From Alphaproteobacteria bacterium (GTDB lineage: Bacteria; Pseudomonadota; Alphaproteobacteria; UBA828): DNA of 64,000 nt. Every line of letters begins with the position of its first letter. Within the stretch, counting starts at the first letter, position 1. The notes below the pieces were generated by a model. That model was not told the DNA's origin. It saw only the letters and a program-made list of their open reading frames with translations, and did not search any database. The stretch spans positions 68,641 through 132,640 of the forward strand of contig CAXXMU010000008.1 of the NCBI GenBank assembly GCA_963667785.2, read 5' to 3'. This document shows, piece after piece, positions 44,971 through 54,455 of this stretch. The position numbers were made by a program, and so were the translations under genes.

Positions 44971-44987
44971 GGCCCGCTCCCGCCCCG

Positions 44988-46256
44988 CTAGAAATCCTCT
45001 CTGAACACGTCCAGCGGCGAGCAGGGCGGCGGGATCGAGATGGCCTGGATGACGGTCTCGGGCCGCCGCAGGTAGTCGCCGAGCTCGATCTCCCCGGCGC
45101 TGCGCCCCGGAGTCTCGACATGCGTGCCCAGGCGGCGGCCGAAACGCACCAGGGAGCGGCCGTAGCGGGTGCGCTCCGCGTCGTAGCGGGCCAGCGCGTA
45201 GGCGAGCTCGCCGGGGTAGGCGCCGATCAGGTCGGCGAGGAGGACCGCGTCGCCGGTCGCCTTGACCACGCCCATGCCGGTGTGGGGCCGCGCGGCGAAC
45301 GCCGCATCGCCCAGAAGCGCGACCGGCCCCTCGACCATCTGCGGCGTCTCCAGGTCAACGATGGTCTGGAAGAAGAGCCCGCGCGAGCGGATCATCGGCT
45401 CCGCCAGCACCGGCGGCAGGAGGTTTTCTGCCGCCTGCCTGACCTCGTCGACGAGCGAGGGGACGATGAGATCGGGCGCGATCCCCGCCTCGTGATAGTG
45501 GCCGGATTCGTCGGTCTGCATCTCCCGCAGCCGCTCCGCCGTGGCCAGCCTGTACCAGACGATGTTGAAGCGTCGCCTGCCGGGGCTCCCGTCGCCGTCC
45601 GCGCCCGCCACCGGATAGCCGACGACATGCTCTCCCGGCGGCAGGCAGACGATGAAGTGCTCGAACAGGATGTCCCGGTGCGCCGCCGAGAGACGCTCCT
45701 CCTCGACGATGCCGCGCCATGCCACGTAGCCGGCGTATTCCGGCACCGCGTCCGGCCAGAGCTGGGCGCGAACGGTCGAGCGCACGCCGTCGGCGCCGAT
45801 CAGCAAGTCGGCCTCGATGCGGCTGCCGTCGGCGAAGTGGGCGAGAACGCGATCGCCCTGCGCCTCCGCCCGCGTGAAGGTGGCGCCGGCGACATAGCGC
45901 TCCGCCGGGAAGATTTCCCGCAGCGAGCGGTAGAGGTGGCCCCAGGTCGACTGGATCTGTGGCAGGCGGAGGCGCGCGAGGATTTGCCCGTCGGTGCCGA
46001 GCGTGATGCGCTCCTCCAGTCTGGTCCCGAACGCCTCGTCGATGAGGAGCCCGAGGCGCTCGAAGGCGGCGTGAAGCTCGGGATGGGTGGCGATGCCGAC
46101 GCCGCGCTCGGCGAGCTCGGTGCCGATCCGCTCGTGCACCGTCACGTCGCAGCCCGCGCGGTGCAGCAGATTGCCCGCGAGCAGCCCGCCCAGCGAGCCG
46201 CCGACGATGACGACGCGCAGGCGCGGGGCGGCGTTTCCCTCGGAGCCGTCAGCCAT
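44988..46256 (-). CDS. FAD-dependent monooxygenase (2,6-dihydroxypyridine hydroxylase-like)
   Basis: VGGSLGGL, GADGVRS, YAGYVAWRG, LLGDAAF.ARPHTGMG. Confidence 0.85.
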   Translation of the reverse strand: MADGSEGNAAPRLRVVIVGGSLGGLLAGNLLHRAGCDVTVHERIGTELAERGVGIATHPELHAAFERLGLLIDEAFGTRLEERITLGTDGQILARLRLPQIQSTWGHLYRSLREIFPAERYVAGATFTRAEAQGDRVLAHFADGSRIEADLLIGADGVRSTVRAQLWPDAVPEYAGYVAWRGIVEEERLSAAHRDILFEHFIVCLPPGEHVVGYPVAGADGDGSPGRRRFNIVWYRLATAERLREMQTDESGHYHEAGIAPDLIVPSLVDEVRQAAENLLPPVLAEPMIRSRGLFFQTIVDLETPQMVEGPVALLGDAAFAARPHTGMGVVKATGDAVLLADLIGAYPGELAYALARYDAERTRYGRSLVRFGRRLGTHVETPGRSAGEIELGDYLRRPETVIQAISIPPPCSPLDVFREDF

Positions 46257-46399
46257 GCCGGGTGAGCCCCCGCACGATTCCTGCCGTGCAGCCGCACGGC
46301 GGGTTACCGGCATGGGTCGTCGAGATGCGTTCGTCGCTGGTCTTCATCGGTACCGAATCACCCGCTCCCCAGCCTACGCGAGAAGCGCGCAGCCGGCCA

Positions 46400-47551
46400 T
46401 CACGTCGCGCCGGGCGCAGCGTCGGGTGTCGCGGCGTCACGGCGGATGCGGGGAGCGGCGGCGTCGGGGAAGTTCCAGCGCGTCAGCCAGCGGGCGAGGG
46501 AGCCGTTCAGCGCGCTGTCCAGCAGGCGGCAGTCGGCGGCGACGGTCTCGTCGCGCACGTCGCGCTGCACCTCGGCCGTGCCGCGCCAGGGCCCCTGGTC
46601 GGTGGTGGACGACTGCCCCAGGATGGTGGTGGCGATGGCGCGGTCGAGGTAGGCGACGAAGGCCTGGAAGTCGCCGCCCGCGCGCTGCGCGCTGTCGACG
46701 ATCTCGATCTCCTGGCCCTCGGGCAGGACCACGCCGAGACTGGTGGCGAAGGACTCGACCAGCGCCAGCAGCTCGGCCTTCTGCTCGGACGTGGCGTTGC
46801 GCGGATAGGTGCCCTTGACGCCGGGGGCGCCGAACCGCTCCAGCGCGACGGACCAGAACTTCAGCCCGTGACGCTTGAGCCAGACCGGCCAGAAGCACCA
46901 GCGGGCGAGGCCGGGCCCGTGCGGCAGGTCGCCGTGCTCGCCGGGGCGGCGGAGGACCACGAACTTGCCTGCCGGCAGCGGCTCGCCCAGAGGGTGGGTA
47001 TCGGTACGCAGCAGCGGCTCGCCCTCGTCGGACCAGCGGAAGCGGTCCGGCGCGCGCACCGCGAGGCGGTCCAGCACGACGCGCTCTCCGTCCTCGGCCC
47101 AGAGCGCCTCGGCGATGGCGTAGCCGTACCAGACCCCGTGCAGGAGCTGGCGACAGGCGGCGTCGAAGCCCGCGTCCGCGAGCTGGCGGGCGAGGTCGTC
47201 CGCCGCGGCGCGGTCTAGCGCGCCGTCGCCGCCGGGCTCGACTGTCCAGGGCCGCGCGATGGCGGCGTCGAGACGCTGGTCCAGCGCGGCCTGGCAGCGC
47301 TCGTCCCGCAGGATGTCGCGGTAGATGCGGAGCGCATGCGCGTCGTCGCGCAGGCGCTGGGCGTAGCGCGAGGGCTGGCGCGGGTTGAGCGGCAGCTCGC
47401 CGATATAGGGCTGGAGGCGGCCGGCGATGCTGGCGGCCGCGGCTTCGCCGGCGGGCGGGGCGGCGGGCGCGCCCGTGCGGGTGCGCGGCAGTAGCCGGCC
47501 GAGGCGGGTGGCGAGGCGGGGCGTGGAGGTGAAGACAGGTCGGGCTCTCAT
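46400..47551 (-). CDS. Mu-like phage portal protein (gp29/DUF935 family), orphan
   Basis: YRDILRDERC.AALDQR..A...W.VEPGG, LL.GVWYGYAIAE.LW, P.G.GLARWCFWPVWLKR..LKFW...LERFG.P..G.Y, I...ILGQ..TT, L.RWNFP. Confidence 0.85.
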   Translation of the reverse strand: MRARPVFTSTPRLATRLGRLLPRTRTGAPAAPPAGEAAAASIAGRLQPYIGELPLNPRQPSRYAQRLRDDAHALRIYRDILRDERCQAALDQRLDAAIARPWTVEPGGDGALDRAAADDLARQLADAGFDAACRQLLHGVWYGYAIAEALWAEDGERVVLDRLAVRAPDRFRWSDEGEPLLRTDTHPLGEPLPAGKFVVLRRPGEHGDLPHGPGLARWCFWPVWLKRHGLKFWSVALERFGAPGVKGTYPRNATSEQKAELLALVESFATSLGVVLPEGQEIEIVDSAQRAGGDFQAFVAYLDRAIATTILGQSSTTDQGPWRGTAEVQRDVRDETVAADCRLLDSALNGSLARWLTRWNFPDAAAPRIRRDAATPDAAPGAT

Positions 47552-47604
47552 GGCCCGATCATCGCCGCCTCTTCGCGCCCTGTGCACCGCACCATGGTGC
47601 GGTG
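47552..47604 (-). promoter_or_regulatory. Palindromic activator site + -10-like hexamer, copy 2 (portal promoter)
   Basis: Perfect 20-bp palindrome CACCGCACCATGGTGCGGTG (47585-47604); minus strand ...GTGCAC-N18-GATGAT-N6-ATG. Confidence 0.8.
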
Positions 47605-47637
47605 TCTTTCGCGGGCGGAGAGGGGAAGTGCTGGCCG

Positions 47638-50019
47638 CTATGGCGCCTGCGCGCGGTTGGCACGGCGCTGCCGCCAGAACTGCGACAGCACGACGAGGCC
47701 GAGCAGGGCGAGGCCGGCGGGGTAGATGAGCTGCTTGGGCGGCAGGTCGATCTGCTCGACGTCGACTCCGGTGACGTAGTCGCCCCAGTCGATGCCCGCC
47801 TGCTCGGCCATCCCGTTGAAGGCGAGATCCACCACCGCGTAGCGGCCGTCCGCCTCCTGCTCGAGCCCGACGCCGAAGGTTTCCGTCGGCGTCGCCGCCT
47901 GCTCCGCCGGGGTCTCGAGCACGAAGAGCTTGTAGCGTTCGCCGTAATCGGTCTCGCGCGTCACGTGCAGGCGGACCTCGCGGCCGGTCTCGGGCACGAA
48001 CTCGCCCGAGGCGAAGGACTCGAAGGCGACCGCCTCGAAGGGCGGCACGATCTCGTCCATGAAGAAGCCGGGGCGGAAGAGCATGAAGCAGGCCGCGGCC
48101 AGGATCACGGCCTCGTACCACCGCACCTTGACGAGCATCCACCCTTGCGTGAGCGAGCTGAAGGCGAGGATCGCGAGCAGCGACATGATGGCGACGAGGG
48201 CACCATGCCAGAAGCTGTCCACGCCGATCAGCAGCAGCTCCGTGTTGAAGAGGAAGACCAGCGGAAGGATGGCCGTGCGGATGTCGTACATGAAGGACTG
48301 CACGCCGGTCTTCAGCGGGTCGGCCCTGGATATGGCCGAGGCCGCGAAGGCGGCAAGGCAGACGGGTGGCGTCGAATCCGCCAGCAGGCCGTAGTAGAAG
48401 ACGTAGAGGTGGACGGCGATGAGCGGCAGCACGAGCCCCGCCGCGCTGCCGAGCTCCACCAGCACGCCCGCGAGCAGCGAGGCCACCACCAGGTAGTTGG
48501 CGGTGGTCGGCAGCCCCATGCCGAGCACGATGCAGAGGATCGCGGTCAGCCCGAGCAGGATGTAGACGTTGCCGCCGGCGATGGCCTCGACCACGCCGAC
48601 CATGGCGTTGTTGAGGCCGGTGGACGAGACGGCGCCGACGATGATGCCGGCGGCGGCGACGGCCACGGCGATGCCGATCATGTTGCGCGCGCCGGCCACC
48701 ATGCCGAGATAGATCTCGGTGAAGCCGTCTCGCACCGCCTCGCCCATCGGCTGGCCGCCGCCGCGGGCCGCCGCGACCACCCGGCGGACGAGGATGATCA
48801 CCATCACCGAGAGGATCGAGTAGAAGACCGCGCTGTGCGCGCTCCAGCGCTCGACCATCAGCAGGTAGACCAGGATGAAGATCGGAATCAGGTGGTGCGC
48901 GCCGCCGAGGAAGGTGTGGCGCAGCCGCGGGATGTCGGCCCGCGGCAGGCCCGAGAGGCCGAGCTTTTTCGCCTCCAGGTGGGAGATGTAGAGCAGCGCG
49001 ATGTAGCTGAGCACGGCGGGGATCGCCGCGGCCGCGACCACGTCGAAATAGGAGATGCCGATGAACTCCGCGATGATGAAGGCGGCCGCCCCCATGATCG
49101 GCGGCATGAGCTGGCCGTTGGTGGACGCTGCCACCTCGATGGCGCCGGCCTTCACCGCGGGCATGCCGATCCGCCGCATCACGGGGATGGTGAAGGTGCC
49201 GGTGGTGACGACGTTGGCGATCGACGAGCCGGAGACCATGCCGGTCATGCCAGACGCGAGAATCGCCGCCTTGGCCGGCCCGCCGGTGTAGCGACCCACC
49301 AGGGCGAAGGAGAGGGCGAGGAAGTACTGGCCCGCGCCGGCCTTGTCGAGCAGCGCGCCGAACAGCACGAACAGGAACACGAAGCTGACCGAGACGCTGA
49401 GCGGAATGCCGAAGACCGCCTCGCCCGTGAGCCACTGGTAGCCGATCAGCCGGTTCAGGCTCAGCCCCTTGTGGGAGATGACGTCGGGCATCGACTGGCC
49501 GAAGATCGAGTAGACGAGGAAGACCGCGCAGACGATGACGAGCGGTATCCCGATCGCGCGCCGCGTCGCGTCCAGCAGCAGCAGCATGCCGACGCCGCCG
49601 AGGATGGCCTCCACCGCAACGCCGTTCCAGACGTAGAGGAGGCCGTGGCGGGAGACGAGGCCGTCCCAGCCGAAGAACAGGTAGAGCGCCGCGACGCAGC
49701 CGACGAGCGCGCAGGCGATGTCCCAGGGCGGCAGGCCGCGCTCGCTCCAGCGGCGCGACAGCGGGTACATCAGGAAGCAGAGCAGCAGCGCGAACGAGAG
49801 GTGGATGCCGCGCGCCGGCACGTCGCCGATAATGGCGAAGTCGAACATGAAGGGCAGGGGCGAGGCGATCCAGAGCTGGTAGACCGACCACAGGAAGCAG
49901 AGCAGGCTTATGAGCAGTGCCAGGCGCGGCCCCTGCCGGCGCCCCTGGTACTCGACCTTCTCCAGGGTCTTCTGGACATCGGCGGCCGTGGCCGCCGCGC
50001 TCGGCTCGCTATGCGTCAC
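47638..50019 (-). CDS. TRAP transporter fused 4TM/12TM permease (TAXI-associated)
   Basis: GGPAKAAI, SGSSIANVVTTG, MPPIMGAAAF, GMGLPTTANY, TPPVCLAAFA. Confidence 0.93.
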   Translation of the reverse strand: MTHSEPSAAATAADVQKTLEKVEYQGRRQGPRLALLISLLCFLWSVYQLWIASPLPFMFDFAIIGDVPARGIHLSFALLLCFLMYPLSRRWSERGLPPWDIACALVGCVAALYLFFGWDGLVSRHGLLYVWNGVAVEAILGGVGMLLLLDATRRAIGIPLVIVCAVFLVYSIFGQSMPDVISHKGLSLNRLIGYQWLTGEAVFGIPLSVSVSFVFLFVLFGALLDKAGAGQYFLALSFALVGRYTGGPAKAAILASGMTGMVSGSSIANVVTTGTFTIPVMRRIGMPAVKAGAIEVAASTNGQLMPPIMGAAAFIIAEFIGISYFDVVAAAAIPAVLSYIALLYISHLEAKKLGLSGLPRADIPRLRHTFLGGAHHLIPIFILVYLLMVERWSAHSAVFYSILSVMVIILVRRVVAAARGGGQPMGEAVRDGFTEIYLGMVAGARNMIGIAVAVAAAGIIVGAVSSTGLNNAMVGVVEAIAGGNVYILLGLTAILCIVLGMGLPTTANYLVVASLLAGVLVELGSAAGLVLPLIAVHLYVFYYGLLADSTPPVCLAAFAASAISRADPLKTGVQSFMYDIRTAILPLVFLFNTELLLIGVDSFWHGALVAIMSLLAILAFSSLTQGWMLVKVRWYEAVILAAACFMLFRPGFFMDEIVPPFEAVAFESFASGEFVPETGREVRLHVTRETDYGERYKLFVLETPAEQAATPTETFGVGLEQEADGRYAVVDLAFNGMAEQAGIDWGDYVTGVDVEQIDLPPKQLIYPAGLALLGLVVLSQFWRQRRANRAQAP

Positions 50020-54403: not shown

Positions 54404-54455
54404 GGGGCGATCATGGCCGGGCCCGCCCCGCCCGTGCACCGCACCATGGTGCGGT
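54404..54455 (-). promoter_or_regulatory. Palindromic activator site + -10-like hexamer, copy 3 (lysis cassette promoter)
   Basis: Perfect 18-bp palindrome ACCGCACCATGGTGCGGT (54438-54455); minus strand ...GTGCAC-N18-CATGAT-N6-ATG. Confidence 0.8.

Follow-up and report, generated by a model that had tools for sequence, protein, structure and literature searches.

We describe here an open reading frame (ORF) of 383 codons on the minus strand (47551..46400, stop codon included) of a 64,000-nucleotide (nt) stretch of contig CAXXMU010000008.1 (assembly GCA_963667785.2, positions 68,641 to 132,640), hereafter the window, which comes from an uncultured alphaproteobacterium. Comparison of the sequence with those of related genomes firmly shows that the predicted product is a homolog of the portal proteins of Mu-type phages and belongs to a vertically inherited, selectively maintained and C-terminally shortened clade. 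Equally firmly, this putative portal belongs with phage genes for packaging, head and tail that are dispersed over the genome, and the copy in the window has been trimmed further than those of its relatives. Taken together, we consider it reasonably probable that the portal goes back to an ancient Mu-like prophage, that the split gene set was domesticated by the genus, and that the copy in the window has since been eroded further.

A Mu-type portal conserved across the genus

The ORF is uninterrupted, as judged from ORF calling and translation of the window, and its product matched Portal_Mu (PF06074, formerly DUF935) with an E value of 1.3e-83 (281.6 bits, against a curated cut-off of 23.9) and the PHROG 113 'portal protein' profile with an E value of 1.4e-77. 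Sequence matches in the PDB were 8rka (E 3e-22) and 9khx (E 2.9e-20); an NCBIfam scan of the protein returned zero matches. In the Portal_Mu alignment, residues 75-375 correspond to profile positions 2-304 of 336 and the final 32 positions are absent, that is, the family is recognised without coverage of the whole domain including its crown helices. A preliminary description of the window had proposed an intact, DUF935-like portal of 383 amino acids (aa), a proposal that it left to profile HMMs to decide and that they bear out.

The genus, an uncultured member of the Rhodospirillales (Alphaproteobacteria), is represented by metagenome-assembled genomes, and the sequencing runs that hold the sequence are mostly labelled as sponge metagenomes. 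Our panel of relatives comprised 40 genomes, 20 from the same genus and 20 from outside it (the genome that holds the window is G000), and the genome-wide searches among them covered the portal, TerL and the major head protein. Portal orthologs, 83-87% identical, were found in 16 of the 20 same-genus genomes (the one in G020 being partial) and in none of the 20 genomes outside the genus. Except in G013 and G020, these orthologs are intact (14 of 16), measuring about 412 aa with no frameshift; the ~412-aa proteins cover Portal_Mu positions 2-335 of 336 and end a few residues past a conserved ...HIERTYGGEWE motif.

In a quick maximum-likelihood tree of 60 proteins, 15 short portals formed a single clade (SH-aLRT 100), which was nested among full-length portals of 495-546 aa and set off by a stem of 0.26 substitutions per site. 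Moreover, a search of 5.8 billion proteins gave whole-length matches of 380-464 aa at identities of at least 81% and of mostly 495-546 aa at identities of 76% or below; some of the longer values among the short forms are due to the gene callers' choice of start codon, and fragments occur too. On this tree, the short form is an offshoot of full-length phage portals that arose once. Four Portal_Mu genes are present in the window's own genome, namely three with the full domain in prophage-like head modules (at C1:210 kb, C5:3 kb and C6:499 kb, by contig) and the window ORF. P0002, a database protein of 412 aa that is 94% identical and encoded on a contig of 1,357 nt, was left aside as a possibly chimeric assembly, its middle being identical to the window's protein and both its ends resembling other species.

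Portal loci were fetched from 13 relatives, and in 10 of them TerL precedes the portal, mostly as its immediate neighbour; in most of the 13 the TerL-portal pair is flanked by host genes, a MetE-like gene at one end and pyruvate carboxylase at the other. These shared flanks, together with the shared truncation end, are evidence for vertical inheritance, subject to the caveat of erosion in some carriers, which we weigh below. In G003 and G020 one gene is inserted between TerL and the portal, and in G007 TerL is split by an insertion. The insert in G003 (L027 5770-7119) is a 449-aa RTX-repeat (HemolysinCabind) gene, and a 449-aa ORF occupies the same position in G020 (L036 7956-9305). The G007 insertion (L029, G007:C3, 8882-13983) encodes a Toprim/DUF3991 protein among others and looks like a mobile element within a domesticated terminase.

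Selection was estimated from pairwise medians of the ratio of nonsynonymous to synonymous substitution rates (dN/dS) after Nei and Gojobori, which are rough at a GC3 of ~0.93 and for which the host-gene controls are the relevant yardstick. The estimates were 0.17-0.22 for the portal and 0.25 for TerL, as compared with 0.06-0.19 for seven host genes from the same loci; dS was 0.29-0.47 for the portal, TerL and host genes alike. Among 11 relatives, dN/dS was 0.17 in the portal core, 0.13 in the crown segment that is lost in the window copy, 0.44 in the N-terminal leader and 0.75 in the 8-11 residues after 'WE', a near-neutral tail such as junction-derived sequence should show. The branch of the window's own portal had a dN/dS of about 0.20, and its sister branches 0.17-0.26. 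Hence, the earlier suggestion of a trimmed but maintained portal holds for the ~412-aa form of the genus (14 of 16 intact, one clade, dN/dS 0.17-0.22) and is not supported for the 383-aa form of the window. Likewise, the ~412-aa end is found genus-wide, while the 383-aa end was seen only in the window's own genome and in a strain ~96% identical to it. The latter truncation is lineage-specific. No degenerate downstream remnants were found: tblastn with the C-terminus of a full-length paralog portal and with the F protein gave nothing within 2.5 kb downstream of the orthologs at E below 0.1.

A phage gene set dispersed over the genome

The portal had been described as solitary, with no terminase upstream and no F-like gene downstream. 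Locally this is accurate: neither gene was found in the 10 kb around the ORF, and the adjacency to TerL and head morphogenesis genes that is a trait of the Portal_Mu family is missing from the window locus. Genome-wide the term does not apply, as a TerL partner and a head and tail gene set are conserved elsewhere. The TerL ortholog of the window's genome, 79-81% identical to those of the relatives, lies at C1:6751-8103, on a contig other than the portal's. TerL of the portal-adjacent pairs is a Terminase_6C protein of about 450-490 aa, and orthologs occur in 15 of the 20 same-genus genomes (one cut by a contig end, one split by the insertion).

Besides TerL and the portal, the packaging, head and tail inventory includes a head maturation protease/scaffold (phrog_976, C1:10289-11380), the adjoining cement gene, a capsid-E-like major head protein, a Phage_tail_S neck protein, a tail terminator, a tube protein, a 256-aa tape-measure-like protein and tail-tip proteins, all within C1:3-27 kb around TerL. 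A 2,036-aa J-like protein and Mor-like, Gam-like and S24-repressor genes are encoded in the same region; the last three persist beside the cluster in both G000 and G002, and contig C1 begins 3 kb from the cluster. This structural cluster holds neither a portal nor an F-like gene. Between TerL and the head protease, where the phage has portal and F, stands a homocysteine S-methyltransferase gene (C1:9121-10047).

Orthologs of the major head protein with 90-93% identity are encoded in 16 of the 20 same-genus genomes, where the distance from their gene to the portal ranges from 85 kb to over 1 Mb unless the two stand on different contigs or replicons. Portal and head orthologs occur together in 15 of the 20 genomes; of the other five, G011, G015 and G016 gave neither, G012 the head gene alone and G018 the portal alone; this count is descriptive only, since kin are not independent. 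The gene order of the structural cluster is kept in all ten relatives' loci that were fetched, and a portal tree and a head-plus-tube tree show the same main groups. Purifying selection is also seen within the cluster, with dN/dS values of 0.10 for the major head protein, 0.15 for cement, 0.13 for the tail terminator and 0.22 for the tube protein.

Three assignments within this set were tried and abandoned. The head protein is not of the Mu-like_gpT type (PF10124), for which there was no match in the window's own genome; it is capsid-E-like. A truncation of the portal owing to loss of the protease is ruled out by the phrog_976 head maturation protease, which is kept beside the cement gene. Finally, the short tape-measure-like protein showed no clear homology to the 754-aa protein of the paralog prophage, from which it might have derived by internal deletion.

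In a paralog prophage of the intact type, the gene order is TerS-TerL-portal-F, with protease-cement-head in an inverted block. One such Mu-like prophage occupies C1:182000-213000 of the window's genome, with TerS-TerL-portal-F on one strand (208-213 kb) and protease, cement, major head and tail genes on the other (182-192 kb), the head block being inverted relative to the packaging block; a Mu-type transposase gene lies at 198.6 kb, and its portal and head protein are 67% and 83% identical to the domesticated counterparts. The Mu transposase C-terminal domain was found only at C1:198.6 kb and C6:510 kb, both within prophages other than the dispersed set. Near-identical Mu-like head modules lie at C5:1-8000 and C6:494000-511000, with the same Portal_Mu score, the same F-like gene and the same Mu-like protease, and with TerL genes that differ (49% and 68% identical to the TerL ortholog at C1:6751-8103). 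These two modules may be a duplicated prophage, or an effect of assembly or contamination: one of them stands at a contig start, and the contamination estimate is 6.6%.

Structure and origin of the short portals

The AlphaFold2 model of the 383-aa protein (pLDDT 75, pTM 0.70) has, as far as predicted models go, the wing, stem and clip of the portal fold. Its best Foldseek matches were the JBD30 portal (8rka_A, E 3.3e-16, TM 0.57/0.54) and the Mu portal (9knu_A, E 9e-14), with the G20c portal also among them. A two-copy complex prediction scored 0.01 (against a mark of 0.42), which gives no verdict and is used here neither for nor against the portal. The model of a full-length paralog (505 aa) has a long wing helix (residues 305-340), a strand (348-351), crown helices at 359-372 and 379-385, then a low-confidence or disordered linker (386-423) and, last, a C-terminal bundle of four helices (424-496). 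In the alignment with Mu 9khx, model residues 3-380 pair with Mu residues 6-388 (Z 19.6; 19.6-20.0 over the comparisons with Mu), and the model matches JBD30 8rka with a VIA Z of 21.6 (rmsd 9.9, 305 residues aligned).

In the Mu virion the portal lacks the last 124 of its 512 residues, and cleavage by protease I is held responsible, according to PMC11915804. The ~412-aa form of the genus stops ~10-15 residues beyond the position aligned to Mu's last ordered residue (388). Because its end falls so near to that residue, the ~412-aa form would correspond closely to the mature, processed Mu portal, only the linker and the C-terminal bundle being lost in the models. The genus portal thus resembles Mu gp29 (PDB 9khx, 9knu) and JBD30 gp32 (PDB 8rka) in its strong HMM and sequence matches and in its predicted wing, stem and clip fold, but the C-terminal ~100-124 residues, which in Mu are encoded and thought to be cleaved off, are absent from the gene itself. 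The window copy departs further from these phage portals: it also lacks the crown helices, carries a foreign N-terminal extension and stands outside a phage head operon. Since the chain of the 383-aa model stops directly after the strand that precedes the crown helices, both of them are missing. As the lost segment is strongly constrained in the relatives (dN/dS 0.13), the 383-aa protein is probably an impaired or early-decaying portal rather than a newly adapted one.

We propose that the set descends from an ancient Mu-like, long-tailed prophage, which was fixed in the lineage ancestral to this Rhodospirillales genus. We infer that one breakpoint, located between about codon 412 of the portal and the protease gene, then split the prophage, and that the C-terminal domain of the portal was lost with it, along with the F-like minor head gene beside it; a single breakpoint of this kind would explain the two loci, the absent portal C-terminus and the absent F gene at once. 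What is left of the genes might go on producing a phage-like particle to the host's benefit, in the fashion of a gene transfer agent (GTA), which we put forward tentatively and with some doubt. It is a slightly more doubtful suggestion that sponge-associated Rhodospirillales possess an independent, Mu-type GTA-like system encoded at no fewer than two loci, without an F-like protein and with a 'pre-matured' portal, whose gene already lacks the C-terminal domain that is thought to be cleaved off in Mu-type phages. In common with RcGTA-type GTAs (Rhodobacter capsulatus and other Alphaproteobacteria), the set consists of vertically inherited phage genes under purifying selection that are spread over two or more loci; nearby means of self-propagation were not found, and the tape-measure-like protein is short (about 250 aa). 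Its ancestry differs, as shown by the Mu-type portal and the capsid-E-like head protein; the RcGTA portal (PDB 6te8, 6toa) matches at the level of the fold only (Z 16.4-16.7, 10-11% identity). Unlike RcGTA, the set is known from genes alone, is eroded in several species, and TerS was not found. Our literature search, which covered listings and abstracts, returned structure papers on Mu and JBD30 and no description of a Mu-type GTA, a DUF935 prophage remnant or an element of this genus.

Several observations weigh against a maintained, domesticated gene set. One or another component is broken in about 7 of 17 carriers: the head locus of G013 consists only of protease, cement and head genes, and its portal is frameshifted at the C-terminus; G012 has the head gene without an orthologous portal or TerL, and G018 has portal and TerL with no head-gene match; the G020 portal is internally deleted with an early stop, and the protease of that genome is interrupted; in G003 the protease and the 5' end of the head gene are damaged; and TerL of G007 is split by ~5 kb. 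Further broken copies occur in the database (P0011, truncated near the same point, and P0043, frameshifted). TerS and an F-like gene were not found with the gene set, no transposase was found near the clusters of the window's own genome, the tail-tip genes have dN/dS values of 0.46-0.55, and Nei-Gojobori values are rough at a GC3 of about 0.93. Finally, the dN/dS of the window copy's own branch (0.20) is no higher than that of its sisters, and substitution rates thus show no relaxation; decay of this copy is deduced from its lost parts and not from rates.

Much of this is what plain cryptic prophage debris would look like, in which functionless phage genes decay slowly and the window ORF is a pseudogene kept open by high G+C. 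The erosion and the missing TerS and F fit such an explanation, as do the loss from the window copy of its native start, crown helices and TerL neighbour, and the fact that long spurious open frames are common here. We nevertheless regard debris as unlikely, as the packaging and head genes have dN/dS values of 0.10-0.25 at a dS of 0.3-0.45, in the same range as the flanking host genes, and 14 of 16 orthologs are frameshift-free across about 412 codons. Moreover, decay does not readily account for a tail after 'WE' that is almost free (0.75) directly behind a constrained crown segment (0.13), or for the 0.20 of the window copy's own branch. The same conservation would have another meaning if active phages had recently inserted in each species, the selection then acting on the phage and not on the host, and related full-length portals of 66-76% identity do circulate in the same bacterial group. 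We hold this to be very improbable: the same truncation end recurs in 14 intact orthologs and the same host flanks in most of the 13 loci, dS is the same as in host genes, all short forms fall into one clade, and no transposase adjoins the copies in the window's own genome. Synteny already contradicts it.

A truncated portal could also act as a decoy, with or without TerL, which blocks the assembly of related Mu-like phages, e.g., by co-assembly, and so brings about superinfection exclusion. In its favour, the window's genome has three other Portal_Mu genes, which lie in prophage-like head modules and of which one is 67% identical. The portal is also still present in G018, for which no head-gene match was obtained, it stands away from TerL in G000, G002 and G018, and a conserved leader and a coupled upstream ORF (uORF) accompany it in 13 of 13 relatives. 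However, 15 of 20 genomes have the portal together with the conserved head gene, a pattern more in keeping with a particle role, neither portal nor TerL matched a PADLOC defence model, and no experimental precedent was found in the literature search; we therefore think a decoy quite improbable. The repurposed ring of the preliminary description, standing alone, is likewise less probable than membership in a split set of particle genes, because the TerL partner and a head and tail set are conserved elsewhere in the genome.

If the split set does make particles, it would add a GTA lineage of Mu-type ancestry in unculturable symbionts, and it would offer a natural experiment on which parts of a portal are dispensable, namely the C-terminal domain (in the genus) and the crown helices (in the window's own lineage). 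If it makes none, it would still document how genes for phage packaging and heads can stay constrained at host level when the prophage itself has long been broken up. In either case, a 'solitary' phage gene is to be weighed against the whole genome and its relatives when it is annotated.

The window locus and its lineage-specific changes

As the preliminary description had it, the portal ORF stands between a TRAP permease gene and a flavin monooxygenase gene, to which Pfam domains now attest. On its 5' side and on the same strand lies a DctM/DUF3394 TRAP fused permease (47638-50019), with a TAXI-type binding protein further out; on its 3' side, also on the same strand, a FAD-binding monooxygenase (44988-46313, Pfam FAD_binding) is followed by OsmC-like and nitroreductase genes. 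The G+C content of the ORF (0.73-0.78) is, as noted earlier, host-like (0.66-0.77 in other host genes of the window). The reading frame of the portal remains open for 1,163 codons (46400-49891, minus strand), crossing the TRAP permease gene in a different frame, which illustrates that an open frame at 72% G+C is little proof of a gene.

Three changes set the window's portal apart from the 14 intact orthologs: its separation from TerL, a replacement at the 3' end and a fusion with the uORF at the 5' end. The separation from TerL is common to G002 and G018, which share the OsmC neighbour as well. At the 3' end, a lineage-specific segment of 1,437 bp (44985..46421, minus strand), which includes the monooxygenase gene, stands in for the last ~35-45 codons of the portal and the intergenic region of the closest relatives. 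In a blastn comparison with L026, homology ends at 46422 and restarts at 44984, the two blocks being 215 bp apart in L026 and 444 bp apart in L025. The homology of the protein to its orthologs ends after codon 377, and the gapped DNA alignment to L025 continues to about 46392. The replacing DNA supplies six non-homologous codons (AAPGAT) and the stop (46400..46420, minus strand), whence the C-terminus reads ...TRWNFPDAAAPRIRRDAATPDAAPGAT*, ending as described before.

This 3' junction is bridged by a contig of run X3 (358 nt, 46189-46546, 0 differences) and by one of run X1, from another study (829 nt, 46125-46956, ~96% identity). As contigs from two sequencing runs span it, the junction is real and not an assembly artefact, and the X1 contig implies that the arrangement is present in at least one other strain. 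In the metatranscriptome run X20, a contig ~92% identical covers 46542-46963, and contigs ~90-95% identical cover 16 of 30 bins; this hints weakly at transcription of the gene in a relative and is not enough to claim expression.

At the 5' end, a uORF of 14-20 codons precedes the portal in the 13 of 13 relatives examined, and its TGA overlaps the portal ATG, an arrangement that suggests translational coupling. The uORF peptide is variable and the flanking nucleotides are invariant; its start sits in an invariant GATCGGGSCATG motif (e.g., L033:7340-7432 among the relatives; 47525-47563 in the window). In the window, a deletion of ~41 nt (junction at about 47526/47525) has removed the Shine-Dalgarno sequence and ATG of the orthologs and fused the uORF in frame to the portal, and the first ~9 codons (MRARPVFTS; 47526..47551, minus strand) come from the conserved leader uORF. 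The element GATGATCGGGCCATGA (47548..47563, minus strand) holds the uORF start, which is now the start codon of the ORF; within it, GATGATCGGG and CATG, separated by S (G or C), do not vary among the 12 aligned sequences, and the final A hardly varies.

The kept part of the leader conserved in the genus (47552..47616, minus strand, ~65 nt; blastn and alignments with L025, L026, L027 and L033) is the TerL-portal intergenic region of most relatives, and DNA homology to them starts at about 47616. The upper limit first given for the portal locus, 47604, thus takes in 53 nt of leader beyond the ORF start at 47551. The promoter of its own that had been assigned to the gene was not recovered: a sigma-70-type scan of 46200-47900, ill-suited to a high-GC alphaproteobacterium, gave 0 sites, and an Rfam scan of 46200-47800 gave no family at E up to 1. 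The leader also contains the palindromic motif GCACCATGGTGCGGTGCACAGG (47579..47600, minus strand), which the promoter scan flags as a hairpin. GCACCATGGTGCGGTGCACAGG is the core of a 24-nt palindrome; allowing up to 2 mismatches, it occurs 9 times in the genome and a reversed control 0 times, with one copy at 54431-54452 of the window and others on C1, C2, C5 and C6 of G000. These dispersed copies rule out an operator specific to the portal, and the motif resembles REP-like repeats dispersed between genes, or else a site that a global regulator uses.

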